A stretch of 64,000 nucleotides of DNA from an uncultured Gammaproteobacteria bacterium. GTDB lineage: Bacteria; Patescibacteriota; Microgenomatia; JALYQM01. The notes below the pieces were generated by a model. The model did no database searches. It was not told the origin of the DNA and saw only the letters and a program-made list of their open reading frames with translations. Where the stretch lies: the NCBI GenBank assembly GCA_964525495.1, contig CAZGHS010000001.1, positions 102,263 through 166,262 of the forward strand, written 5' to 3'. A program made the translations under genes and the position numbers. This document shows, in pieces, positions 17,239 through 53,947 of this stretch (position 1 is its first letter; the number at the start of each line of letters is the position of its first letter).

Positions 17239-17901
17239 TTAAAGAATAAATGGTTTCTCATCGTCATTCACTACAAAACTATCATCCACAGGCTTATTCT
17301 GCAACTCTTCGTCAATCGCCCGCAGTTCACGCAACGCCTCCTGAGGTGAATCCACGATTGTAAACACATTCAGCTCTTCGTCGCGAATACGCATACTACG
17401 AGTGATAGCCGCAATAATGTCATACCATTGTTTGCCACACAAGATAAGTGGCTTATGATGGCCATAATATAAACGAGCCATAGCCCAGGCCATACCAAAT
17501 TCTGACAAAGTCCCCGTTGCTCCGAGGAAAATCATGTAAACCTGGCCATATTCAAGCAATCGCAAAGTACGCTCTAAATAATTTTTAGTCACGATCTCTT
17601 CATCCATTACATTCGCAGTAGATTTACCTTCGAAATTGCTCGCATTCTTTGGATAAAAGGTCACTCCAATTGTTCGTCCTCCACCAGCTTTCGCACCAGA
17701 AGAAGCAGCGCCCATCACACCAGGTCCACCACCATCTACTACAATATATTTATTCTCTGCAACCAATTTTGCAGTATCAAACGCAAACTTGTACTCTGGA
17801 TCCTCTTTTGTCGAATCCGCGAATCCAAAAAACGCGACCCGTTCGACCTTGCGATGCGGAAAAACTTTCTTAGTATCTAATTGAGCCAGTTGAATCGCCA
17901 T
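17239..17901 (-). CDS. LOG family protein (cytokinin riboside 5'-monophosphate phosphoribohydrolase-like, TIGR00730)
   Basis: 220 aa; VVDGGGPGVMGAASSGAKAGGGRTIGV and PGGxGTxxE-like (GATGTLSEF) motifs. Confidence 0.8.
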   Translation of the reverse strand: MAIQLAQLDTKKVFPHRKVERVAFFGFADSTKEDPEYKFAFDTAKLVAENKYIVVDGGGPGVMGAASSGAKAGGGRTIGVTFYPKNASNFEGKSTANVMDEEIVTKNYLERTLRLLEYGQVYMIFLGATGTLSEFGMAWAMARLYYGHHKPLILCGKQWYDIIAAITRSMRIRDEELNVFTIVDSPQEALRELRAIDEELQNKPVDDSFVVNDDEKPFIL

Positions 17902-21699: not shown

Positions 21700-22689
21700 A
21701 TGAATTCAATGAGCAAAACAGAGCACCCTCTCAGCTGGCACGCAATAGCGCGCGTAGTTATAACAATATCCGCAATTTATCTCGCCTGGCAGCTTTACGG
21801 CACCTTACTAATGATATTCGTATCAATCATGCTCGCCGCCGCTTTCTATCCTATCGTTATGAAGCTAGCCGAGAAGCGGATTTCTATAACTCTTTCATCA
21901 ATATTTGTAGTTCTTACGCTCATATTGCCGATCATAATTATTCTCTTCACGATTCTTCCTGGAATCGTTCAGCAATTCCCAGAAATAGTTAGAACAGTCG
22001 ACAGAGCAGTCAAAGAATCCACCGTCCTTCCACCAACCTTGCGCGATATTGACCTCACTCAATACGCACAAAATGCTGCAAGTTACGTAGTCCAATCAAC
22101 ATCAAAAATCACAAACTTCGTGGGAACGTTCTTTACGATTATATTCTTAACCCTATATTTCCTAATCGACTCCAAACGTCTTAATGAACTCATCCTTTCC
22201 ATAATTCCAGAGGGCAGTCGCACCAAAGCAGAAAAGCTCACGGAAGAGCTCACTAAAATTAACGGTCAATATATTCGAGGGAATCTTCTTATCTCACTAG
22301 TCTGCGGAATATCTATATTCATTGGACTATTACTTATCGGCGTCCCTTATGCTGCTCCACTCGCTCTCTTTGCCGCCCTTGTTGATATGCTTCCACTGAT
22401 CGGCGCAATCATCGGTGCGATCCCAGCTATCATCATCGCGTTCGCAGTCAACCCCACAGCTGGAGTTCTGACACTCCTACTTTTCATCATCTATCAACAA
22501 ATTGAAAACAATATTCTCTCACCTAATATCTATAACAAAGCTCTTAACCTCTCTCCAGCACTTAGCTTCATTGCCGTACTGATAGGTGGATCAATAGCAG
22601 GTATAGTCGGCGCATTTATAGCTCTTCCGATTGCAGCAAGCATTCCAACAATAGTTAAATATGTACAAAATTATGATGAGGTTAAGTAA
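21700..22689 (+). CDS. AI-2E family transporter (PerM/UPF0118)
   Basis: 329 aa, 8 TM; conserved ALVDMLPLIGAIIGAIPAII segment. Confidence 0.8.
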   Translation: MNSMSKTEHPLSWHAIARVVITISAIYLAWQLYGTLLMIFVSIMLAAAFYPIVMKLAEKRISITLSSIFVVLTLILPIIIILFTILPGIVQQFPEIVRTVDRAVKESTVLPPTLRDIDLTQYAQNAASYVVQSTSKITNFVGTFFTIIFLTLYFLIDSKRLNELILSIIPEGSRTKAEKLTEELTKINGQYIRGNLLISLVCGISIFIGLLLIGVPYAAPLALFAALVDMLPLIGAIIGAIPAIIIAFAVNPTAGVLTLLLFIIYQQIENNILSPNIYNKALNLSPALSFIAVLIGGSIAGIVGAFIALPIAASIPTIVKYVQNYDEVK

Positions 22690-29110: not shown

Positions 29111-29788
29111 TTAATGACCACAATTGCCTCCACAGCCACAACCTTCACCTCCACACGCACAGCCTTCTTCAGTTTCATCACACCCACATCCAACAACAAT
29201 TTCCCAATTCTCTTCTACCTTTTTCCAATCCAAATTCTTCAAAAATGCTTCAATATACTTTGCGCGAGCTGCACCATGATCAATAAAATAAGCATGCTCA
29301 TATGTATCTAAAGCCAAAACAGGAGTCGCGTTCCATACAGGGAATGTATTCTGCGCATCGCCCAGATAGTTAAACAAATATCCATAATCATGATCATACG
29401 CAAGCCATACCCAGCCTCGCGCACCAATAGCAGTCGCTTTCAAATCCTTTTCCCAGTTCTCAAATGAACCAAAGTCTTTAACAATCTGGTCCAACAGTCC
29501 ACCTTCTGGTCGACCACCAGCTCCACCTAAATGACTGAAATAAATCTCATGATTCTTAACGCCGCCGATTGCAAACGTAAGCTCCATTTTCAATTCACGG
29601 ATCAACGAATAAACCTGATTTGCAGCTGCATAATCCTCATCTGTCAAAGCCTTCAATTTCTGAGTTATCTCATTATATTTCTTTACATAGCCTTCATACA
29701 GTTTGTAATGTTCGGTCATAGTCTTTTCGCTAATACCGTCCATTTTCAAACTTTCTTCGCGCAATTTCATTGGTTCCAGCGTTTTCAT
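29111..29788 (-). CDS. Fe/Mn superoxide dismutase with C-terminal Cys/Gly-rich tail
   Basis: Start trimmed to MKTLEP (ggagga SD) from ORF 29111..29914; conserved LEP, GG..NH, and D-x-x-EHAYF-x-DH metal ligand region; 25-aa tail CGCDETEEGCACGGEGCGCGGNCGH. Confidence 0.8.
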   Translation of the reverse strand: MKTLEPMKLREESLKMDGISEKTMTEHYKLYEGYVKKYNEITQKLKALTDEDYAAANQVYSLIRELKMELTFAIGGVKNHEIYFSHLGGAGGRPEGGLLDQIVKDFGSFENWEKDLKATAIGARGWVWLAYDHDYGYLFNYLGDAQNTFPVWNATPVLALDTYEHAYFIDHGAARAKYIEAFLKNLDWKKVEENWEIVVGCGCDETEEGCACGGEGCGCGGNCGH

Positions 29789-29902
29789 AAATGCTCCTCC
29801 AGTAACAACATTTGTTATTATCATAATAACAAATTTGACGGCAAACTTGCAACAAGGGCTGTCGTATTGAACAATGTGAAGAAAAAACTTATAGTAGATA
29901 CA

Positions 29903-32900
29903 ATGAAGAAACATTGCCTAAAATACACACATGAACCAATCAAAAAAGTAACATTTGCACTAAAAAAAATCGCTAACTTTTTGTTTAAAAAACAGATGGT
30001 AATTTCCCGAATACGATTTAATTTGTTTGGTGCAGTAATGTTATCGATTGGAGCAATAATCGGCTCATATGTAACTGTTACAAAAATATTAATCCCATTT
30101 GCATTTGCTTCAGACTCTACACAATCCTGGAATTTTTCCACAAGTGGTGACTATACCCTCTCTGACACATCATTAGCCGAAGTAGCAGGATCTAGTGCAA
30201 AACTAAAAGTACAAAATTATTCTGATGCAGCAAACACTGCAGCTCTTTTTCACTTTGATGAGTCCTCCGGAAACCCCACTGATTCATCGAGCAACGCCAA
30301 CGCAGCAACAGCCAGCAATCTAACTTTTGCTACAGGAAACTTTAACAATGCGGCAGATTTTAACGGATCGACATCAAGCGTATCGGTTGCCGATTCAGCT
30401 TCACTTTCACTAAGCTCGTCAAATACTGTTGAGGCTTGGACAAAGTTTGATTCTTCTTTTTCGGCAGGCAGTCACTCACAGCGCCAAGGTGTAGTCGACA
30501 AAGGCCAATACCAACTTTACTACGACAATGAAACAGGTAAATTAACCTATGAATTAGCTAATTCATCTGCAACATCCTGGACCCAAGTAGCTGGAAATGA
30601 TGTCAATGGAAGCTGGGATCTCGATGGTCAGTTAGCAGCGCATGCAATGACTTCAGTTGGGACAGATTTGTATGTAGGGCTAGGAAATGCTACTGGTGAT
30701 GCTGAAGTCTGGCGCAGAAGTGGTTCGACTTGGACTAAGGTGGGTGGAGATGGACTTAACTCTGGCTGGGCGTCTTTGACTTTTGAAAGCGTGCTATCCC
30801 TGGCCAGCGATGGAACAGATGTCTATGCAGGTTTGGGTATAACTGCGGGTGACGCTGAGGTCTGGAAATATGATGTATCCGAAGGAACGTGGAGTAAAAT
30901 CGGTGGCGACGCAGTTAACTCATCTTGGGCGGTTAATACATATGAAGGTGTGTACTCACTCGTCTGGCAAGGATCGACCCTCTATGCTGGGCTTGGACTA
31001 ACTGCTAACGATGCAGAAGTGTGGTCGTGGAATGGTAGTGCTTGGACCAAGATTGGTGGCGACAGCACCAACTCTGGTTGGACTACTAATTTTGAATATG
31101 CTTACAGTATGGTGCACGATGGCACATACTTATACGCAGCTTTGGGCGCGACGGCTGGAGATGCTGAAATCTGGAGATGGAATGGAACTGCTTGGACACG
31201 AATCGGCGGAGACGCAATTAATTCTAGTTGGGCAGATGCGACGTATGAATTTGGACTAAGTATGACGTATGTTGGAGGCATCCTGTACGCTGGACTGGGG
31301 ACGACGGCTAACGAGGCAGAAGTGTGGTCATGGAATGGTTCTGCTTGGACACAGGTCGGTGGAGATAGTTTGAACTCTGGCTGGACTACTAATTATGAAG
31401 GTGTCTACACGCTTAAGAATGACGGTACAGATGTGTACGCTGGTTTGGGTGCTTCTGGAGGAGACAATGAGGTATGGAAACTCACTGTAGGGACCACTAC
31501 TTGGAGCAAAATTGGTGGAGATGGCACAAACTCCAGCTTTACCAGTACTACTCATACTATCGTTGACACCATGCATTTTATTGGCACGACTCTGTATGCA
31601 GGTATTACCTCAGGAAATGCTGGGCGCACCGGCGAAGTATGGAGCTTTGCCAGCGGCAGTTGGACGCAAATTGGCGGTGACTATATCAATTCGAGCTGGG
31701 GATTTAGAGGATTGCAGGCTGCTAATGTCATGACAGTTTCTGGTTCTTATTTGTATGCAGGTACTGGTACAACTGGCAGTGCTGGTAACGCCTTAGTTTG
31801 GAGATATGATGGAAGTACTTGGACCTTGATTGGAGGACAAGGCATAAATAGCAGCTGGACAGCCAATACGTACGAGGATGTGCTCTCAATGATCAGTCAT
31901 AATGGCACACTGTATGTTGGTCTTGGCTCTTCGGCTAATGAAGCTGAAGTATGGTCGTGGAACGGTAGTGCTTGGACACAAATTGGCGGCGATAATTTGA
32001 ATTCCGGATGGACGACTAACTATGAAGAAGTAAATACATTGGCGACCGATGGAACCTATCTGTATGCTGGACTTGGATTGAGTGCCAATGATGCTGAAGT
32101 CTGGCGTTGGAATGGTACTATATGGGGGAAAATTGGTGGAGATAGTACAAACTCTGGATGGACTACTGGCTTTGACCGAATTACATCAATGGCCATGTAT
32201 GCGGGTCAGTTATATGTTGGACTTGGTTTGACCGCAGGAGAAGCAGAAGTCTGGACTTGGAATGGATCTATTTGGGCGAAGATCGGCGGAGATACGGTGG
32301 GTTCCAGCTGGGATTCAAGCAATTTTGAGCATGTCGACAGCATGATCCCTCTGAATGGTGTGCTGTATGCTGGTCTTGGAACTGGCACGGGAGATGCTGA
32401 GGTTTGGTCATACAATGGAAGTACCTGGACTCAGATTGGTGGAGATGATTTAAATTCTGGATGGACATCGGGAACTTACGAGCGCGTCAGAACTCTTGTT
32501 GCTTACAACGGCGATCTCTACGCAGGCATTGGAAACGGCACCGGTGAAGGTGAGGTCTGGAGATACCGAAGTGGAACTTGGTCTCAGATTGGTGGAGACA
32601 GCTTAAACTCAGGATGGGATAACATTGTTGAAGAAGTTCAGAGTTTTAGTGTGTATCAAGGAAAACTGTACGCAGGATTGGGCAATACACAAAATGTTGA
32701 TGCAGCAATCTGGTCCTATGGGAATAATGCGTACATGCAATCAAGCACCGCTTCTCAAAATACAAGCTGGCACCATGTTGCAGCTACTTATAACGGATCG
32801 ACCATGAAAATCTTTATTGACGGAGTTCAAGACAACTCGACAAGTGCCTCAGTCACCATTCCGGACACTGCGCATAGTTTGCTGCTTGGCACTACCTATG

Positions 32901-35821
32901 CCAGCCGAGAATCCGGTAAGGCACAAGGCTATTTCCAAGGACTGATTGATGAACTTCGCCTTTCTGACACAGCACGAACTACATTTACGACTTCTCCTTA
33001 TACTGCAGCAGCTCAAACTGTCCAACCAACGGCCGCAGTTTTTACTTCAGGAGTTGAAAACTTTGATGACTTTACCGTGTCAGAAACTACCAATGGTGGA
33101 TCAATAAATTATAGATTATCCATTGATGGCGGCACTACTTGGAAATATTATAGTGGAGGTACTTGGACAACATCAGCTTCAACGGCGCAAGTAAATGATG
33201 CAAGCACCATCGATACAAATATTAGTACACTGACTGCAGGCTCAGGAGGTATTCTGTGGCAAGCGGTACTAGATGGTGATGGCACGCAACAAGTTACGCT
33301 CAATAGCGTTTCAATTGGCGCAGTGCATGACTCTACTGTTCCCGTTGCACCTGATACATTAACGTCTTTATCTGCATTAGCCGGTTCAGCCATTACTACA
33401 AATACATGGTATACGCATAGTGGTCCTTATTTCTCATGGAGTGGCGCGACCGACACTGACGGCTCTGGTATTTGGGGATATTATGTTTATTTTGGCACTG
33501 ACAATACAGCAGATCCACAAACAGCAGGAAATTTTCAAGTTGCATCAACATTTACTGCATCAAGTTTATCCAGCGGATCTACCTATTATTTGAGAATCCG
33601 AGCTCGTGATAATGCACAGAATGTGAGCTCTATCTGGTCTGCCTTCACATACAAGTTTGATAGCACTGCTCCAACAAATCCTGCATCGATTACGATAAGT
33701 CCTGCCGGATACTCGGCAACTAATGATTTTACCTTTTCTTGGCCAGCAGGAACTGACGGTTCGTCTGGAATTGCAGGCTATCAATACAAAACTGCAACTG
33801 CGTCAGGATCGCTATCTGACTGGTCGTCAACGACAGCATCAACCAGCATTAATATTCCGAATGCTGCATATCAAACTGATGCAAATACTTTTTATCTAAG
33901 AACGATTGATACTTCGGGTAATATTAGCTCCGAAACTACTGCAACCTACTACTTTGGCGGCGAAGGTCCTTCTCTACCTCAGTTCTTAGCGGTTACACCC
34001 TCTTCAAGTACCACTAACTCATTTGCATTCTCCTGGGATCCTCCTATTACCTTCTCTGGGGATGAAGATGAATTAACCTATTGTTATACAGTCAATACCT
34101 TGCCGACACTTAACTCGTGTACATTTACCAGCGAAGGCGCGACATCACTTTCTGCAAGTTCGTTTGCTACTCAAGTCGGACTTAATACATTTTACTTGGT
34201 GGCAAAAAACCCTGCAACGGCAGGCGGCTCTATTAACTATGGCTCCTATACAAGCGTTACCTTTACTGCCGATACCTCGGCACCTGGAATTCCACAGAAT
34301 CTAGATATTGGAGATATCTCAATTAAAAGTTCTGAAACATGGCGACTAGCGCTATCTTGGAATGCACCTAGCGATACAGGATCAGGTATTTCAAGTTACA
34401 AAATACATAGATCGACAGATGATTCAACCTATTCTTTAATCTCCTCGACAACAGGCCTGTCTTACGTAGATACTGACTTAGAGGAAGAAGAATATTATTA
34501 TAAGATTAAAGCCTGCGATAGCGTTGATAACTGTGGCGCGTTTTCAAGTTCAGTCTCATTGGTACCAACTGGCAAGTATACCGAAGCTGCTGGATTATCT
34601 TCTGGTCCAACGGTTTCAGCTATTACTACCAAGAAAGCGGTGATAAGTTGGGTCACAGATCGCGATTCTGACTCAAAAATTGCATATGGTACAACCTCAG
34701 GATCATACTTCACTTCTGAACCATCAAATTCAACTCAAACAGACGATCACTCAATTACTTTATCTGAACTAACTCCTGGAACAACCTACTACTACAAAGC
34801 TAAATGGACAGACGAAGACGGTAATACAGGAATATCCTCCGAAAAAACATTCGCTACTGACTCAGCACCAACAGTAACTGATCCCAAACTAAAGCGAGCA
34901 GGTTTGACCGACGTAGACTTAGAGTTTAAATTGAAAGGCTCATCAAAAGTGAAAGTGTACTATGGAATCACAACTGCGTTTGGAGGTGTAAAGGAATTAG
35001 CTACCTCTACGTCAGAATCCACCTACACCTTGAATATTGATACTCTTCTATATGGTACTAAGTATTTTTATAAGATTAACGGATTTGATAACGAAGATAA
35101 TGAATACGAAGGAAGTACATTAAGTTTTGAAACACTTCCCCGCCCTAAGATTGCAAATGTACGTATTCAAGAAGTCCGGGGAACCGCCCAAACGACTGCG
35201 CTAATTACCTGGACTACCAATACTGAAACATCCTCAATAGTTACCTATTATCCAAGTGATGATGCAGGCGCCGCTCGAGACGAAGTTAATGTCACCCTAG
35301 TGAAGCAACACCGAGTGGTATTGCGTAATCTGCTACCAAAGCGCGACTATAGCCTAGTAGTAAAAGGACGAGATAAATCTGGAAACGAAGCTGCATCCGA
35401 ACCTCAAAAATTCACAACAGCAACAGATACTCGCCCACCACAGATCCAAGATATGCGCGTCGAAGGCAGCACTCAAGCAGTTCGTGGTGGAAGCTCTCAA
35501 GAACAAACTGCACAATTAGTTGTATCATGGAATACGGATGAGAATTCAACCTCACAGGTCGAGTTCGGTGAAGGCACGGGTACCACATATAGCCAGAAAT
35601 CTCAGGAAGATACGAACCTTACTACAAATCACGTTATAGTTATATCTGGGCTAACTCCATCACGTGTCTATCATCTTCGTGCCCTATCTAAAGACTCAGT
35701 GGGAAATGCGGGAAGCTCCGTTGATACAGTTACTATTACACCAAAGGCGTCAGACAGTGCACTAGATCTAGTTATAACAAATTTACAAGGAATCTTTGGA
35801 TTTATTAATGCACCAAGGTAA
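29903..35821 (+). CDS. giant cell-surface protein: N-terminal signal-anchor, LamG-like domain interrupted by about 13.5 W/G-rich 52-aa repeats, then multiple fibronectin-III-like domains
   Basis: ORF 29531..35821 trimmed to first Met downstream of the divergent SOD gene (alt. start 29996); TM LFGAVMLSIGAIIGSYVTV; LamG_3-like halves (LFHFDESSG...TVEAW and SWHHVAATYNGSTMKIFIDG...GLIDELRLS) flank the repeat array; FN3/PKD-like modules with SW...G...Y.Y motifs in the C-terminal 900 aa. Confidence 0.85.
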   Translation: MKKHCLKYTHEPIKKVTFALKKIANFLFKKQMVISRIRFNLFGAVMLSIGAIIGSYVTVTKILIPFAFASDSTQSWNFSTSGDYTLSDTSLAEVAGSSAKLKVQNYSDAANTAALFHFDESSGNPTDSSSNANAATASNLTFATGNFNNAADFNGSTSSVSVADSASLSLSSSNTVEAWTKFDSSFSAGSHSQRQGVVDKGQYQLYYDNETGKLTYELANSSATSWTQVAGNDVNGSWDLDGQLAAHAMTSVGTDLYVGLGNATGDAEVWRRSGSTWTKVGGDGLNSGWASLTFESVLSLASDGTDVYAGLGITAGDAEVWKYDVSEGTWSKIGGDAVNSSWAVNTYEGVYSLVWQGSTLYAGLGLTANDAEVWSWNGSAWTKIGGDSTNSGWTTNFEYAYSMVHDGTYLYAALGATAGDAEIWRWNGTAWTRIGGDAINSSWADATYEFGLSMTYVGGILYAGLGTTANEAEVWSWNGSAWTQVGGDSLNSGWTTNYEGVYTLKNDGTDVYAGLGASGGDNEVWKLTVGTTTWSKIGGDGTNSSFTSTTHTIVDTMHFIGTTLYAGITSGNAGRTGEVWSFASGSWTQIGGDYINSSWGFRGLQAANVMTVSGSYLYAGTGTTGSAGNALVWRYDGSTWTLIGGQGINSSWTANTYEDVLSMISHNGTLYVGLGSSANEAEVWSWNGSAWTQIGGDNLNSGWTTNYEEVNTLATDGTYLYAGLGLSANDAEVWRWNGTIWGKIGGDSTNSGWTTGFDRITSMAMYAGQLYVGLGLTAGEAEVWTWNGSIWAKIGGDTVGSSWDSSNFEHVDSMIPLNGVLYAGLGTGTGDAEVWSYNGSTWTQIGGDDLNSGWTSGTYERVRTLVAYNGDLYAGIGNGTGEGEVWRYRSGTWSQIGGDSLNSGWDNIVEEVQSFSVYQGKLYAGLGNTQNVDAAIWSYGNNAYMQSSTASQNTSWHHVAATYNGSTMKIFIDGVQDNSTSASVTIPDTAHSLLLGTTYASRESGKAQGYFQGLIDELRLSDTARTTFTTSPYTAAAQTVQPTAAVFTSGVENFDDFTVSETTNGGSINYRLSIDGGTTWKYYSGGTWTTSASTAQVNDASTIDTNISTLTAGSGGILWQAVLDGDGTQQVTLNSVSIGAVHDSTVPVAPDTLTSLSALAGSAITTNTWYTHSGPYFSWSGATDTDGSGIWGYYVYFGTDNTADPQTAGNFQVASTFTASSLSSGSTYYLRIRARDNAQNVSSIWSAFTYKFDSTAPTNPASITISPAGYSATNDFTFSWPAGTDGSSGIAGYQYKTATASGSLSDWSSTTASTSINIPNAAYQTDANTFYLRTIDTSGNISSETTATYYFGGEGPSLPQFLAVTPSSSTTNSFAFSWDPPITFSGDEDELTYCYTVNTLPTLNSCTFTSEGATSLSASSFATQVGLNTFYLVAKNPATAGGSINYGSYTSVTFTADTSAPGIPQNLDIGDISIKSSETWRLALSWNAPSDTGSGISSYKIHRSTDDSTYSLISSTTGLSYVDTDLEEEEYYYKIKACDSVDNCGAFSSSVSLVPTGKYTEAAGLSSGPTVSAITTKKAVISWVTDRDSDSKIAYGTTSGSYFTSEPSNSTQTDDHSITLSELTPGTTYYYKAKWTDEDGNTGISSEKTFATDSAPTVTDPKLKRAGLTDVDLEFKLKGSSKVKVYYGITTAFGGVKELATSTSESTYTLNIDTLLYGTKYFYKINGFDNEDNEYEGSTLSFETLPRPKIANVRIQEVRGTAQTTALITWTTNTETSSIVTYYPSDDAGAARDEVNVTLVKQHRVVLRNLLPKRDYSLVVKGRDKSGNEAASEPQKFTTATDTRPPQIQDMRVEGSTQAVRGGSSQEQTAQLVVSWNTDENSTSQVEFGEGTGTTYSQKSQEDTNLTTNHVIVISGLTPSRVYHLRALSKDSVGNAGSSVDTVTITPKASDSALDLVITNLQGIFGFINAPR
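30640..32720 (+). repeat. in-frame tandem repeat array, 156-bp period, about 13.5 copies (consensus ...LYAGLGxTAxDAEVWSWNGSAWTxIGGDxxNSGWTTNYExVxS...DGT)
   Basis: visible at DNA and protein level; several copies nearly identical (e.g. around 31010, 31320, 31945). Confidence 0.8.
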
Positions 35822-48723: not shown

Positions 48724-49011
48724 TTATTTCAATACATCAGGGCGATCAGCTTCAGAAAGTTGTTCTAAAAGAGGTTCCGCAGCTTCTTTGCATATTTCAA
48801 TTGAGGCATTTCCAAACAAACGAGCATATTGAGTAACTAAATTTTGAAGTATTTGCTTATTGTCACCATCAAACGTAATATCCTCCGCGTTGTTTACATG
48901 CAATCCCATAACTTTGTTCGCCTCACGTAAAGCAATCGGCCCGATAATATTCTGTTGTTCTTTAATTATTCGTGCAGCAATCTCAGCATACACGTTCATA
49001 TTAGTCCTCAA
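48724..49011 (-). CDS. hypothetical small protein
   Basis: 95 aa helical; overlaps next gene start by 11 nt. Confidence 0.4.
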   Translation of the reverse strand: MRTNMNVYAEIAARIIKEQQNIIGPIALREANKVMGLHVNNAEDITFDGDNKQILQNLVTQYARLFGNASIEICKEAAEPLLEQLSEADRPDVLK

Positions 49012-49804
49012 AATATTTAAAGGATATTAATCCTATAGACATTATAAAATAAGATGTCGCATAAAGTATATCATTATATCCACCATTACTATAAGTTTCT
49101 GAACTTACAGCGTACAAAAACAAATATTCAGTCAAAAACTGGAACGTAAAAGCAAAAACCAAAAACAAAATCCGGTTACGCATAATACCACCGGACAATT
49201 TTTTCGAGATAAGCAATATAAATAAAGCTACAGATACCGGTAAAATTTCACCAAGTGGATATCCATAATCAAGAAATGCTTTTATTGGATCAGAAACATC
49301 AAAACCAATATTTCTCACAAATAAGAAGTACGCACTCAAAAGCATCAATAACGGAATAACAAAAACCATCGCTTGACCATGTTTCGTGCGAAGCGAGAAT
49401 TTACCGCCCACAGCCTTAGCAAACATTAAAGCACCTAAAGTATAGAAAGGAATCAAAGCAAAATAACCAAGATCAGCCATCGAAGGATAAGGCACTTCTA
49501 CACCTGCGATCAAATTGTAGTAAGTCCAAATCTGCAGCCCCATCACCTGACCAAGTAAACCAAGTGAAATGAAAATCAATCCTCGACCAATCGCACTCTT
49601 ATATCCTCCCCAATGAGAAGCGATAGAAAAAATTCCATACAAAGCACCAATTAAAGGAGGGAAACCATACGACCAATTAAACAAATACACTTCTGAATCA
49701 AATCCAACTCCTATGAGATTAATTTTTAACCACCACAAGAGAATACCAGCATAAAGTGCAATGAGAAGGAGAGCAATCTTATCTTTAAGTATAGTTGATA
49801 GCAT
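49001..49804 (-). CDS. hypothetical membrane protein (about 8 TM)
   Basis: 267 aa hydrophobic; no family. Confidence 0.5.
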   Translation of the reverse strand: MLSTILKDKIALLLIALYAGILLWWLKINLIGVGFDSEVYLFNWSYGFPPLIGALYGIFSIASHWGGYKSAIGRGLIFISLGLLGQVMGLQIWTYYNLIAGVEVPYPSMADLGYFALIPFYTLGALMFAKAVGGKFSLRTKHGQAMVFVIPLLMLLSAYFLFVRNIGFDVSDPIKAFLDYGYPLGEILPVSVALFILLISKKLSGGIMRNRILFLVFAFTFQFLTEYLFLYAVSSETYSNGGYNDILYATSYFIMSIGLISFKYFED

Positions 49805-49838: not shown

Positions 49839-50699
49839 TCAAGCAGATTTTTTACGAACGCGTATAAACATCATACCTTCATATCCCCGAAAAGGATGTG
49901 CAGTTATCGAACGAATTACTATTTTTGAAATATCAAAACCGTTTTCCCCCAGGATCGTAATCATGTCGCTTTCATCAATCTTAATTGCAGGAAACTTTTT
50001 ACCATCTAACATATAGTATTTAGAGTTTTTTAAGCTGGTAATAAACAAATATCCCTTTGGCTTAACCAAGGCACTAATATTCCTAATCGCCTGCTCCCAT
50101 TCATCACGTTTTGATGTAATAGACTCTGGAACAAAGTTAACGCTTACCACATCATATCGCTTAAATTTATTATGTTTAAGCGAAAATTTACGAAAAGCAT
50201 TACACTTTACAACTTTCTTAAGTTTACTTTTGAGCAATTCCGCACGACGATAAACTTGTCCTGGAGTTACTTTCTTCTGACCTTCAAGTTCAAGTGCGCG
50301 ACGGATAAAATGATTCCAATTAAATGCTCGCTTATGAGCACGAATCCACTTACGAATTTCATGACGATTATGCTTTAAGTATTCTGAAAAATGAATCTCT
50401 GTAACTTTTGAAGCAGCACTTATCAAAGAGTATAAAGTAGGACCACCACCAAACTCCAGTACAGTCTTAACATTGCGTAAATGCTTATAATTTTTAGCAA
50501 AGAATGCGAGAAGCGCGTCATTTTCTTGATCAATAACGGAGTAATACTCTCTTAGGTAAGCTAACGAACCAAAAGAGTCAAATGACTCAAATTCTGAGTC
50601 TAGTGAATTAAGCTCTGATACGGTCGAACTTGAGCTCATAATACCGTACTTAACCTGGCTAGAATTCATAAGTTTTGGGAGTATAACACAAAAAACCAT
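49839..50699 (-). CDS. NNMT/PNMT/TEMT-family SAM-dependent N-methyltransferase homologue
   Basis: 286 aa; collinear with nicotinamide N-methyltransferase: AYLREYY (cf. DYLEKYY), LEFGGGPTLYSLISAA (LIDIGSGPTIYQLLSA), SEYLKHNRHEIRKWI (TDYSDQNLQELEKWL), LVKPKGYLFITS...KYYMLDGKKF (LLKPGGFLVIMD...SYYMIGEQKF). Confidence 0.7.
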   Translation of the reverse strand: MVFCVILPKLMNSSQVKYGIMSSSSTVSELNSLDSEFESFDSFGSLAYLREYYSVIDQENDALLAFFAKNYKHLRNVKTVLEFGGGPTLYSLISAASKVTEIHFSEYLKHNRHEIRKWIRAHKRAFNWNHFIRRALELEGQKKVTPGQVYRRAELLKSKLKKVVKCNAFRKFSLKHNKFKRYDVVSVNFVPESITSKRDEWEQAIRNISALVKPKGYLFITSLKNSKYYMLDGKKFPAIKIDESDMITILGENGFDISKIVIRSITAHPFRGYEGMMFIRVRKKSA

Positions 50700-50806
50700 T
50701 TTTGTAAATACTATAGGTTACATTTAAAAACTACTCCCCTCTTACATATGTAATACCTTCCTGAACAGATTGTACACCTAAACAATATGCTATACTATTT
50801 TCAATT

Positions 50807-51172
50807 ATGGCTATATCCTCGGCCGCCACAATAGTACTGATTATTGTCCTCTCCCTTATTTCAGGACTTGGTGATGCGTACGGATTCACACACGCAGCAA
50901 AAATCTGGCAAGGAAACAAATTTATACTTGCTGAACTCATCAAGTCTGCACTTGGGTTCGCAGTCGGCATCAGCATCTATTGGATCGTTATCAAATTCAT
51001 GAATCAGGTAGGAATTAGAACTGCAGAAATACAAACAGCTATCTGGTTTGCCACAACCATGATTGGCGTAAGTCTACTAAGCGGCGAGTTTGCCCGCTGG
51101 GAAAACTACAACAAACTAGTTGCGGTACTGATCCTCATTGGAATCGGCTGGTTATTAATGCACGAGAAGTAA
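50807..51172 (+). CDS. hypothetical small membrane protein (4 TM)
   Basis: 121 aa hydrophobic. Confidence 0.5.
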   Translation: MAISSAATIVLIIVLSLISGLGDAYGFTHAAKIWQGNKFILAELIKSALGFAVGISIYWIVIKFMNQVGIRTAEIQTAIWFATTMIGVSLLSGEFARWENYNKLVAVLILIGIGWLLMHEK

Positions 51173-51175
51173 GAG

Positions 51176-53947
51176 CTACGGTGCCTTCGGCAGACTAAAC
51201 GCAAAGGTACTCCCTCTACCCAGTTCAGACTTCACATCAAACGTACCTTTCATTGCCTCAACATACTTCTTGCAGATATACAATCCAAGCCCAGTCCCTG
51301 TTGTAGCAGCAACGGTAGACAAACTACTATCAAGGCGGCCAAATTTCTTAAACAATTTCGGCATATCCTCCGATGCAACTCCTCGGCCAGTGTCAGCTAC
51401 ACCAATACGAATTTGCTGATCATGTTCTTCTATTGTAGTGATAATAGAACCTTTATCTGTAAATTTCAGTGCATTACCAAGTAAGTTTGTTATAACTTCA
51501 CGGGTTTTATCAGGATCACCGCTCACTTTTATACTTGGTGCAGCAGAAGTAAAAGAGAAATCAAGTTTTTTTTCATCAGATTTAATCTGCAATTCCTCAT
51601 AAACCGACTTCACCATATCCACAATATCAAAGTCAGAAATTGCAATTTGCACTTTACCAGATTCAATACGCGAAACAGACAACATATCGTTGACCAAATT
51701 GATTAAACGTTGTGAAGATTGTGAGACTCGCTCCAAATAATATCGCTGCTTTTCGGACAAATCTCCGCCTTTACCTGCAAGCAACATCCAGACATATCCA
51801 TTGATAGCTGTCATCGGGGTACGCAACTCATGAGACGCAATCGATACAAACTCATCTTTCATTTTGTCTAAGCCCACAAGCTCTTTGTTTGTTTCATAAA
51901 GCATTGTGTTTACAGACCGTGCTTCTTCATACAAATAGGCATTCTCAAGCGCAATCGCAACTTCATCCATAAACGCATCAAGAATATTATGTTCCTCAGC
52001 AGTTACATCGTGCGGATTCTTATGTAGCGCTAACGTCAACACTCCAAGCGGTTGATCCTTAGACATAATCGGGTAAATAATCACGCCTTTCATTCCAATA
52101 ATTTTCTGAATTCCATCCGAAATAATACGCGGTAAAACAGGTTCAAACGCATCAGCCAATGATGCAGTAATAACTTTCGTTTTCAGCATTAAAGATTGAA
52201 CAGCAAGTGATTTCTCTGAGTTCAGAGGCGTCTGATATTCGGAAATAGAACGAGGCACAAGCTTCAAGGATTTATCAATCAAAGGAGTTTTAGACACCGC
52301 CGTAGGAATAATAACGCTCTTCTTATAATCAACAATACTGATTATCGCGCCATCATATCCTAACTCCCACGCAATAGTATCTACTATCTTTTGAGACATC
52401 TCTTTTGGATCCAAAGTAGTCATAATAATTGAGTCCATTTTCCGTAAAATCTCAAGGTTTTTATTTTTCTGCTGAAGCTGTGAAGTGGCAATCTCTACCT
52501 CACTTTTAAGGCGTTCATTAAAATCACGAGAATGCATAAAAAGCATCACATTTTCAATTCCTATAGCCGCCTGCAAAGCAAAGGCCTCAAGCACATCCAT
52601 ATCCTGTGCCGAATACGAATCTCCCGAAAGTTTATGACTGAGCAAAATAAGCCCCATAACCTCGTTTTTAATGAGCAGAGGCAATATTACAACAATATTA
52701 TTCTTTGACATCCATTCAACAGTTTTTCGTTTGCGGGAATTATCCGTATTGGCCAATTCATCACGCAGATCATCGATAACCACGGCCTTATGATCTTTCT
52801 CAAACTGTCTAACCAGCATCTCACAGTCTGAAGCCTCAATATGCTCGGTATTGAACGTATACAACGCAAACTCGCTCGAACGAACGAGAACACGCGGCAT
52901 ATTATCCTGATTTTTAATCTTAACCGCAAAAACCATTCCCTTCGTGTGTAAGTTTTTATTCAACAAATCATAAATATTTTTTAAAGTCTCCTCAAAAGCC
53001 ACAGTAGTCGTAAGCGTTTGACCCAACTGATACAACAATTCAGCTGGAGTATACGCAGACTTATAAAAAAACTTATCAGTATACTGAGTAATAAGTGTTT
53101 TAAATGGATGAAATGTACTAGCGATTACCAAAGTGATACCCGCATAAACAAACAGCGATCGATAATCTACTTGTCCCTGCAGAAATACCACACTTGCGAT
53201 CAACCCAAGCGCAGCATAGATAACACCAAGCGAACTTAACAATAATGTATAAGCCACTGACCGCGCAGCAAACAAACGAATATCCAAAAACCGATGCCGT
53301 ACGATTGCATAGGCAGTCATAACCACGAAAGTAGGAACTAAAATATTCCCATACGGTGCTATAGGTATCTGGTACCACAACAAATAGTTTGTAACTCCTC
53401 CCGCAAAACTTATCAGCAACCCCCAAAACATATACTGAGATTGCTGTCGGCGAGTACCTGTTAATACGTTCCTATTAGCATAAAGTAAGTATGTCGGATA
53501 AATAACATAAATCATCCAAAGAACCACAAAAATATGAAACATTGGTCCAGGTACCGGCCAAAATGCAAAATCAAGTCGAGGTACCACATCACTCACAAAT
53601 AAATCCGTGAACAAGTTTAAGATAAGGAAAATGAAATACATCACTCCGCTAAGCTGCAAGAATCTCATTTTTTTCTGTAATAAACCCAAGAAAGCATATA
53701 CAAAAGTTAAATATGCGATCGGAATAAAGATAGCAAAATGCATTAATAGCCGTGTGTTATGCAAGGCATCTGCATGAGTAGTAGAAGTCTGCCAGAAAAA
53801 ATAGAACAAACTCCAAAAAGCAACTAAAAATGAATAAATTGCAAACGTTAAGCTAACCTTAGTCCTCTTCACAATGATGACAAATACACCAATCGCAAAA
53901 GTGGTTATAAAATTGATAAGCGCAGACAAGCTATAATACGTAAACAT
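51176..53947 (-). CDS. sensor histidine kinase with N-terminal 7-8 TM sensor, two GAF-like domains, HisKA and HATPase_c
   Basis: 923 aa; HisKA H-box FVSIASHELRTPMTAI; N, G1, G2 boxes (NLLGNALKFT, GVADTGRGV, GTGLGLYICK). Confidence 0.85.
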   Translation of the reverse strand: MFTYYSLSALINFITTFAIGVFVIIVKRTKVSLTFAIYSFLVAFWSLFYFFWQTSTTHADALHNTRLLMHFAIFIPIAYLTFVYAFLGLLQKKMRFLQLSGVMYFIFLILNLFTDLFVSDVVPRLDFAFWPVPGPMFHIFVVLWMIYVIYPTYLLYANRNVLTGTRRQQSQYMFWGLLISFAGGVTNYLLWYQIPIAPYGNILVPTFVVMTAYAIVRHRFLDIRLFAARSVAYTLLLSSLGVIYAALGLIASVVFLQGQVDYRSLFVYAGITLVIASTFHPFKTLITQYTDKFFYKSAYTPAELLYQLGQTLTTTVAFEETLKNIYDLLNKNLHTKGMVFAVKIKNQDNMPRVLVRSSEFALYTFNTEHIEASDCEMLVRQFEKDHKAVVIDDLRDELANTDNSRKRKTVEWMSKNNIVVILPLLIKNEVMGLILLSHKLSGDSYSAQDMDVLEAFALQAAIGIENVMLFMHSRDFNERLKSEVEIATSQLQQKNKNLEILRKMDSIIMTTLDPKEMSQKIVDTIAWELGYDGAIISIVDYKKSVIIPTAVSKTPLIDKSLKLVPRSISEYQTPLNSEKSLAVQSLMLKTKVITASLADAFEPVLPRIISDGIQKIIGMKGVIIYPIMSKDQPLGVLTLALHKNPHDVTAEEHNILDAFMDEVAIALENAYLYEEARSVNTMLYETNKELVGLDKMKDEFVSIASHELRTPMTAINGYVWMLLAGKGGDLSEKQRYYLERVSQSSQRLINLVNDMLSVSRIESGKVQIAISDFDIVDMVKSVYEELQIKSDEKKLDFSFTSAAPSIKVSGDPDKTREVITNLLGNALKFTDKGSIITTIEEHDQQIRIGVADTGRGVASEDMPKLFKKFGRLDSSLSTVAATTGTGLGLYICKKYVEAMKGTFDVKSELGRGSTFAFSLPKAP

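Follow-up and report, generated by a model that had tools for sequence, protein, structure and literature searches.

The window analyzed here, a 64,000-nucleotide stretch of contig CAZGHS010000001.1 (positions 102,263 to 166,262; assembly GCA_964525495.1) from an uncultured bacterium placed by GTDB in the Microgenomatia of the Patescibacteriota, encodes on its minus strand a predicted S-adenosylmethionine (SAM)-dependent N-methyltransferase of the NNMT/PNMT/TEMT family (49839..50669; 276 aa). The enzyme itself adds an ordinary representative to a known fold, and the novelty lies in the conserved, multi-phylum cassette of genes that surrounds it, in which its membership is nearly certain and which we did not find described in the searchable literature. 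Considering the cassette as a whole, we give a probability of about one half to a model that combines N-methylation of a basic amine, export of the product, and two-component control or sensing. An amino acid (most likely basic) would first be decarboxylated by a pyruvoyl-dependent enzyme of the arginine-decarboxylase family, giving, for example, agmatine or a diamine, and the methyltransferase would N-methylate this decarboxylation-derived amine. A 121-aa membrane protein resembling the small multidrug resistance (SMR) transporters would then carry the cationic methylated product across the membrane. Control or sensing would fall to four further proteins: a receptor-like 267-aa protein, the 91-aa protein paired with it, a histidine kinase with GAF domains, and a response regulator. 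In this model, we infer which class of substrate is used, which way transport runs, and what part signaling plays.

Membership of the methyltransferase in the PF01234 family is close to certain. Its open reading frame (ORF), 286 codons long in its widest form (49839..50699, minus strand), had been described in the initial annotation as collinear with animal NNMT, PNMT, and INMT and as carrying the landmark blocks of that family, and both descriptions hold: the G-loop (LEFGGGPTLY) and the KPGG-like block (VKPKGYLF) are present, and the Pfam profile PF01234 (NNMT_PNMT_TEMT) matches residues 38 to 283 along profile positions 11 to 261 of 261 (E=2.2e-40; 139 bits, gathering cutoff 25). This placement is specific, as the generic class I models were far weaker, with Methyltransf_23 reaching 34 bits and Methyltransf_12 and Methyltransf_11 falling under their own cutoffs. 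The top solved relatives in a PDB search were nicotinamide N-methyltransferases (E=2e-23), followed by INMT and PNMT, and among the NCBIfam models the protein passed NF041360 (GntF; 116 bits, cutoff 60) and failed NF040568 (SCO2525 family; 75.7 bits, cutoff 240). When the residues of human NNMT were mapped onto the protein via an HMMER alignment, Y20, Y24, Y25, G63, G65, T67, Y69, N90, and Y204 were found to be kept, with Y38, Y42, and Y43 corresponding to Y20, Y24, and Y25, N101 to N90, and E96 to D85 (an Asp-to-Glu exchange), while D142 is replaced by Asn. As read from this alignment, the cofactor site is intact, and the protein looks like an active SAM-dependent small-molecule N-methyltransferase.

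The cassette, comprising a decarboxylase, the methyltransferase, the 121-aa, 267-aa, and 91-aa proteins, a kinase, and a response regulator, was defined from three loci (L114, L117, and L118), and its distribution was followed in 113 fetched loci in which genes were called greedily and neighbors were clustered. In GCA_001789645.1, assigned to Roizmanbacteria from the name on protein P0152, a single strand carries seven genes, separated by at most 32 nt, in the order response regulator, PF01862 decarboxylase, 120-aa protein, PF01234 methyltransferase, 265-aa protein, 92-aa protein, and 445-aa kinase. This order recurs on an 881-kb contig, but with an unrelated 221-aa gene in the slot between the decarboxylase and the methyltransferase, and in L118 the order is kept with the decarboxylase displaced by about 5 kb. 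The window holds five of the seven genes in a rearranged form, with the kinase upstream and the 121-aa gene divergent, and its proteins are 49% (121-aa), 42% (methyltransferase), 57% (267-aa), 47% (91-aa), and 36% (kinase) identical to those of the Roizmanbacteria cassette. The three closest homologues of the methyltransferase (53-62% identity) share the order methyltransferase, 267-aa gene, and 91-aa gene seen in the window: the 267-aa gene follows the methyltransferase in all three, and the next gene encodes 92 aa in the two longer contigs, where the kinase follows, whereas the third contig ends within it, leaving an ORF of 77 aa.

The gene neighborhood is conserved well beyond these close relatives. 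Across the 113 loci, the methyltransferase has beside it histidine kinases (Pfam) in 29, the 267-aa membrane family in 28, the 121-aa membrane family also in 28, EamA transporters in 17, PF01862 pyruvoyl-dependent decarboxylases (PvlArgDC) in at least 12, and PF01276 Orn/Lys/Arg decarboxylases in 6, the last in spirochaetes. After dereplication, for which methyltransferases were collapsed at 80% identity and only groups with at least 1.5 kb on both sides were kept, 28 of the 43 groups had one or more partners within 3.5 kb (kinase in 15, 121-aa protein in 14, decarboxylase in 12, and 267-aa family in 9). Outside the candidate phyla radiation (CPR), the genes are usually arranged as sensor kinase, receiver, decarboxylase, methyltransferase, and 121-aa protein (e.g., L073, L082, L085, and L009). 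In a rough neighbor-joining tree, the cassette-linked methyltransferases, including the window protein, form one large clade, and a basal group is devoid of these neighbors.

Several features of these loci argue for the basic-amine model. The methyltransferase family is flanked by decarboxylases of two unrelated families, each with an annotation for basic amino acids; the cassette decarboxylase keeps the Ser-Ser site of self-processing; and the sensor of a cyanobacterial kinase located before the methyltransferase is an amino-acid-permease domain. Additionally, the commonest membrane partner has a predicted fold of the small-cation-exporter type, and GntF, the nearest curated relative, is the predicted N-methyltransferase of the pathway leading from L-arginine to guanitoxin (PMC10673588). 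The window itself is devoid of a decarboxylase, and the amine would therefore have to be supplied by another part of the genome or by the surroundings of the cell; for the same reason, the substrate could be an amine of host origin, as the initial annotation had considered.

A number of observations weigh against the model. Searches of the 64-kb window with the cassette decarboxylases and the L114 regulator (tblastn, E<0.01) returned neither a decarboxylase nor a response regulator. About a third of the related methyltransferases, including the basal group, lack the neighbors described above. The cassette decarboxylases score 60-72 bits against an NCBIfam arginine-decarboxylase cutoff of 107 and align well to the solved enzyme only in their N-terminal part, so that arginine as the substrate is a guess. 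By themselves, the fold matches of the 121-aa protein (Foldseek E 0.25-0.5) fall short of statistical significance, and matches come easily to helical bundles. Finally, the sensor domains of the kinases differ between phyla, and the adjacency of a kinase could reflect ordinary regulation.

The loci vary in ways that touch on both sensing and transport. In two cyanobacterial loci, a kinase gene of about 1,100 codons precedes the methyltransferase (L003, 4033-7356; L004, 4474-7779); the L003 kinase consists of an N-terminal APC-type amino-acid-permease domain followed by PAS domains (Pfam), the L004 kinase belongs to the same family by clustering, and such a protein may act as a transporter-like sensor. 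The Patescibacteria locus L008 has a seven-transmembrane (7TM)-GAF kinase similar to that of the window directly after the methyltransferase. Six loci of deltaproteobacterial or Binatia type (L006, L010, L058, L062, L063, and L064) carry the methyltransferase paired with the 121-aa gene, and in most of them the flanks hold a TonB-dependent outer-membrane receptor, a large SARP/AAA_16/TPR regulator, or the two together, which hints at re-uptake of the product from outside. In Ktedonobacteria-type loci (L045-L050, L042, L053, and L059), the 267-aa domain forms the N-terminus of proteins of 525-551 aa, whose extra C-terminal domain of about 180 aa has no family assignment and had no relative in the PDB; the full-length methyltransferase ORF is followed there by a short second one (145-160 aa) that falls into the same cluster. 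The sensory part also occurs by itself, as a distant 267-aa gene with a small partner and a kinase, and with no methyltransferase, in L119 (4099-7076) and L120 (469-1386 and 5052-7122). In both loci, it adjoins a protein containing the aminoacyl-lipid synthase domain LPG_synthase_C, and a transporter of the EamA family is encoded close by; L119 has an AdoMet_dc-type decarboxylase as well. The trio of 267-aa protein, small partner, and kinase seems to be a portable unit joined to various amine or lipid chemistries.

A bolder form of the basic-amine model is a self-contained amine-signal system, in which a methylated molecule resembling a biogenic amine would be made by the decarboxylase and the methyltransferase, secreted by the SMR-like protein, and perceived by a receptor shaped like a G-protein-coupled receptor together with its 91-aa partner, the kinase, and the regulator. 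This would amount to an autoinducer-type circuit not recognized before, common among CPR bacteria and of scattered occurrence in other phyla, and the window, which has no decarboxylase, would represent a "listener" or modifier of amines released by neighbors or a host. We regard this extension as speculative and rather unlikely.

Other functions for the methyltransferase were considered. It might modify a membrane or cell-envelope amine, such as a lipid head group, with the 267-aa protein serving as flippase or acceptor. The neighbors of the distant sensory trio in L119 and L120, namely the LPG_synthase_C protein, the EamA transporter, and the AdoMet_dc-type decarboxylase, are consistent with an envelope target, as is the frequent occurrence of glycosyltransferases nearby. 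However, known PF01234 enzymes are soluble proteins whose substrates are thioethers or small amines in solution, the methyltransferase itself has no hydrophobic segment (maximum 19-residue hydropathy, 0.83), and its commonest partners are of small-solute transporter types, so that an envelope target appears improbable.

Nicotinamide had been named in the initial annotation as a possible substrate. A functional equivalent of NNMT would methylate nicotinamide or another pyridine, possibly host-derived, for control of NAD salvage or for detoxification, and the retention of Y20, Y24, Y25, and Y204 of NNMT, the E value of 2e-23 to solved NNMTs, and the lack of a decarboxylase in the 64-kb window all fit such a role. 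In contrast, NNMT D197, S213, and Y242 are replaced by S212, A228, and T256 (276-aa numbering). In human NNMT, D197 and S213 mediate nicotinamide recognition and Y242 lines the pocket. The three corresponding columns are unconserved in an alignment of 22 homologues, and the D197-equivalent column contains mainly Ala or Ser and neither Asp nor Glu. Identity to NNMT, as read from the alignments, is about 25-28%, compared with 35-62% to prokaryotic relatives, and the conserved partners are amino-acid decarboxylases and cation-type transporters, with no NAD-salvage genes. Because these three residues are lost and the neighbors are amino-acid decarboxylases, cation-type transporters, and sensor kinases, nicotinamide specificity is unlikely as judged from the residues and the gene context, and the chance that the enzyme is an NNMT equivalent seems slim.

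The distribution of the family bears on a possible foreign origin of the gene. A word-indexed search returned 85 homologues at 31-62% identity, nearly all metagenomic, the few with names belonging to the rotifer Rotaria or to Ktedonobacteraceae. When 1.84 billion cluster representatives (clusters at 50% identity) were searched exhaustively with HMMER, 1585 clusters reached E<=1e-3 and 151 of them E<=1e-30; these 151 are nearer to the methyltransferase than the animal enzymes are, and the labeled ones span many phyla. A genome scan with the single protein as query found no relatives; an alignment-based, single-motif scan of 185,579 species genomes (one genome per species) found 35 loci, in Chloroflexota, Cyanobacteria, Patescibacteria, Binatia, Planctomycetes, Actinomycetota, Spirochaetota, Bacteroidota, Proteobacteria, and DPANN archaea. 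Prokaryotic members of PF01234 are thus rare and patchy, as the initial annotation had stated, yet the 151 clusters speak against its description of the family as overwhelmingly eukaryotic, and the prokaryotic branch is sizeable and, with two NCBIfam models of NNMT-type fold (GntF and SCO2525), already partly curated. Two proteins of Rotaria magnacalcarata (P0056 and P0058) share 42% identity with the methyltransferase, which places them nearer to it than the NNMT, INMT, and PNMT of mammals in the PDB search, and fall among bacterial sequences in a rough tree alignment; they could represent bacterial-to-rotifer gene transfer or contamination.

Against this background, the methyltransferase gene might have been acquired recently from a foreign source and lack an integrated role in the genome. 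Its GC content is 0.36, compared with 0.416+-0.032 for the window genes (z about -1.8), the GC content of the methyltransferase, 267-aa, and 91-aa genes ranges from 0.35 to 0.375 (z -1.3 to -2.0), and the phyletic distribution is patchy. However, the codon-usage distance of the methyltransferase lies under the window average, its gene order is common to relatives at 53-62% identity, relatives whose proteins are 53-69% identical have all five genes in the same arrangement, and the partner gene family is widespread in Microgenomates. The compositional check gives no indication of a recent horizontal acquisition, and we consider a foreign gene of this kind very unlikely.

The tight linkage of the methyltransferase to a receptor-like protein and a kinase in many lineages would also fit methylation of a protein of the adjacent signaling module (the receptor-like protein, the 91-aa protein, or the kinase) in a CheR-like adaptation. 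This is highly improbable: protein methylation is not known for any PF01234 member, the linkage to a decarboxylase and a transporter has no role in such a scheme, and many loci have the methyltransferase, the decarboxylase, and the 121-aa protein without the 267-aa/91-aa pair. Equivalence to GntF as a secondary-metabolite tailoring enzyme of guanitoxin biosynthesis is likewise highly improbable, since the 116-bit match to NF041360 (cutoff 60) comes from an unspecific model that all nine other methyltransferases tested, from unrelated contexts and phyla, also pass (83-132 bits), and the neighbors scanned within about 10 kb include no biosynthetic enzyme of such a pathway type. Automated annotation probably misnames the whole clade as the guanitoxin enzyme, because the 60-bit cutoff is passed by the window protein and by homologues in unrelated contexts (e.g., L002, L029, L073, and L114).

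The methyltransferase probably starts at the ATG at 50669 (MNSSQ...; 276 aa), with the ORF reaching 50699, because the form in the public collection (P0001) is a 276-aa protein and the nearest homologues (MNSPK and MSSTQ) begin at the same position. As a weaker point, a promoter-like site upstream of this ATG (50680..50708, minus strand; TTTACA, 17 nt, and TG-extended TATACT, TGtTATACT) overlaps the ten extra codons. The site lies in the 137-bp divergent region common to the methyltransferase and the 121-aa gene, but sites of this kind are as numerous there as expected from shuffling, so that it carries little weight as evidence; repeats in this region were limited to short, chance-level matches.

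Four cassette partners surround the methyltransferase in the window. The divergent gene at 50807..51172 (plus strand), which belongs to the most widely conserved partner family, encodes the 121-aa four-helix membrane protein; in size (SMR proteins have about 105-120 aa), in its four transmembrane helices, and in its predicted fold, it fits the SMR type. It had no Pfam hit, to the SMR profile Multi_Drug_Res or to any other, at E<=10. An invariant Asp (D23) lies in helix 1, the helix that bears a conserved glutamate in SMR proteins. On the opposite strand, an 81-aa ORF (50731-50976, minus strand) antisense to this gene also recurs in related loci and is best explained as a shadow of the conserved gene. 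Directly downstream of the methyltransferase, the 267-aa gene (49001..49804, minus strand) encodes a polytopic membrane protein modeled as a receptor-like helical bundle, which has no Pfam match and whose named homologues come from Candidatus Roizmanbacteria and Daviesbacteria (Microgenomates group, Patescibacteria). From these names, the window organism is probably a Microgenomates bacterium of the CPR, in keeping with the reduced genome considered in the initial annotation. No kinship was detectable between the 267-aa protein and the N-terminal 7TM region of the window kinase (hhalign probability about 1%). The 91-aa soluble protein (48724..48999, minus strand; ORF listed to 49011) starts 1 nt past the stop of the 267-aa gene. 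Its gene always follows the 267-aa gene in L024, L037-L039, L055, and L114-L118, and shorter ORFs of 82 and 97 aa occupy its position in L119 and L120. The 91-aa family has 19 invariant positions and gave only chance-level matches in the PDB and Pfam; the idea that it is a detached domain of the longer Ktedonobacteria proteins was rejected. With the 121-aa and 267-aa families, it makes three cassette gene families that have no Pfam or NCBIfam model. The fourth partner, a 923-aa sensor histidine kinase (51176..53947, minus strand), combines an N-terminal 7TM region, GAF domains, HisKA, and HATPase (Pfam); its residues 490-922 align with the 445-aa Roizmanbacteria cassette kinase at 36% identity (438 aa), and relative to that kinase it has gained the 7TM region and extra GAF domains.

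Other neighbors in the window encode an FKBP protein, a glycosyltransferase, and a peptidase. An ORF at 17239-17901 (minus strand) matches PF03641, named "Possible lysine decarboxylase", and SLOG cluster4. This Pfam name is a misnomer for the LOG family, and the ORF was rejected as an amine source or missing cassette decarboxylase, being a LOG/SLOG-family protein. A gene for an AI-2E family transporter (21700-22689, plus strand) lies about 27 kb from the cassette, to which no link was found. At 29531-35821 (plus strand), a 2096-aa ORF with fibronectin-III and Ig-like domains coincides with the sole stretch of the window with a higher GC content (0.45-0.46) and a positive GC skew; elsewhere, where most genes are on the minus strand, the skew is strongly negative (-0.07 to -0.38), and it seems to track the strand on which the genes lie. 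Scanning the window for Rfam families and tRNAs gave no hits.

If the proposed chemistry is true, bacteria with very small genomes would make or modify methylated amines using the enzyme family with which animals produce methylated biogenic amines, and amine methylation would be coupled to a receptor-like membrane protein and a two-component system. The cassette offers a testable handle on small-molecule exchange or signaling in CPR bacteria, almost all of which are uncultured.

Several known systems can be compared with the window methyltransferase and its cassette. The SCO2525 family (NF040568) is a bacterial branch of the same fold to which the protein is a weak match, and at 75.7 bits against 240 it is a non-member. 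GntF, the substrate of which is reportedly a guanidine-bearing amine derived from arginine and so similar to the decarboxylated basic amino acid of the model, shares the PF01234 fold, and its model NF041360 is passed at 116 bits; however, the window methyltransferase stands not in a guanitoxin (gntA-J) cluster but in a context of decarboxylase, transporter, and two-component genes, and since the cutoff was passed by all related methyltransferases tested, the match shows no equivalence. Among transporters, the comparison is with the SMR family (the Gdx guanidinium exporters and EmrE) and the choline transporter LicB of the drug/metabolite transporter (DMT) superfamily, from which the 121-aa protein differs in having no Pfam or NCBIfam match even at E<=10. 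The chlamydial AaxB/AaxC and archaeal PdaD systems, which consist of a pyruvoyl arginine decarboxylase with or without an antiporter, resemble the cassette relatives in that the latter carry PF01862 with Ser-Ser intact beside a cation-type membrane protein; in contrast, the cassette decarboxylases fall under the equivalog cutoffs and are coupled to a methyltransferase and a sensor kinase, and the window has no decarboxylase. The animal NNMT, INMT, and PNMT are collinear with the methyltransferase over its full length, with motif I (LEFGGGPT), E96, N101, Y38, Y42, and Y43 kept, at about 25-28% identity and with NNMT D197, S213, and Y242 absent from the window protein. Unlike these enzymes, the window gene stands in an operon-like cassette with membrane and signaling proteins, although the pairing of decarboxylase and N-methyltransferase that we infer would mirror the synthesis of methylated biogenic amines in animals. 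As a whole, the cassette is a variation on known kinds, namely amine decarboxylase/transporter modules, PF01234 amine methyltransferases, and two-component systems.

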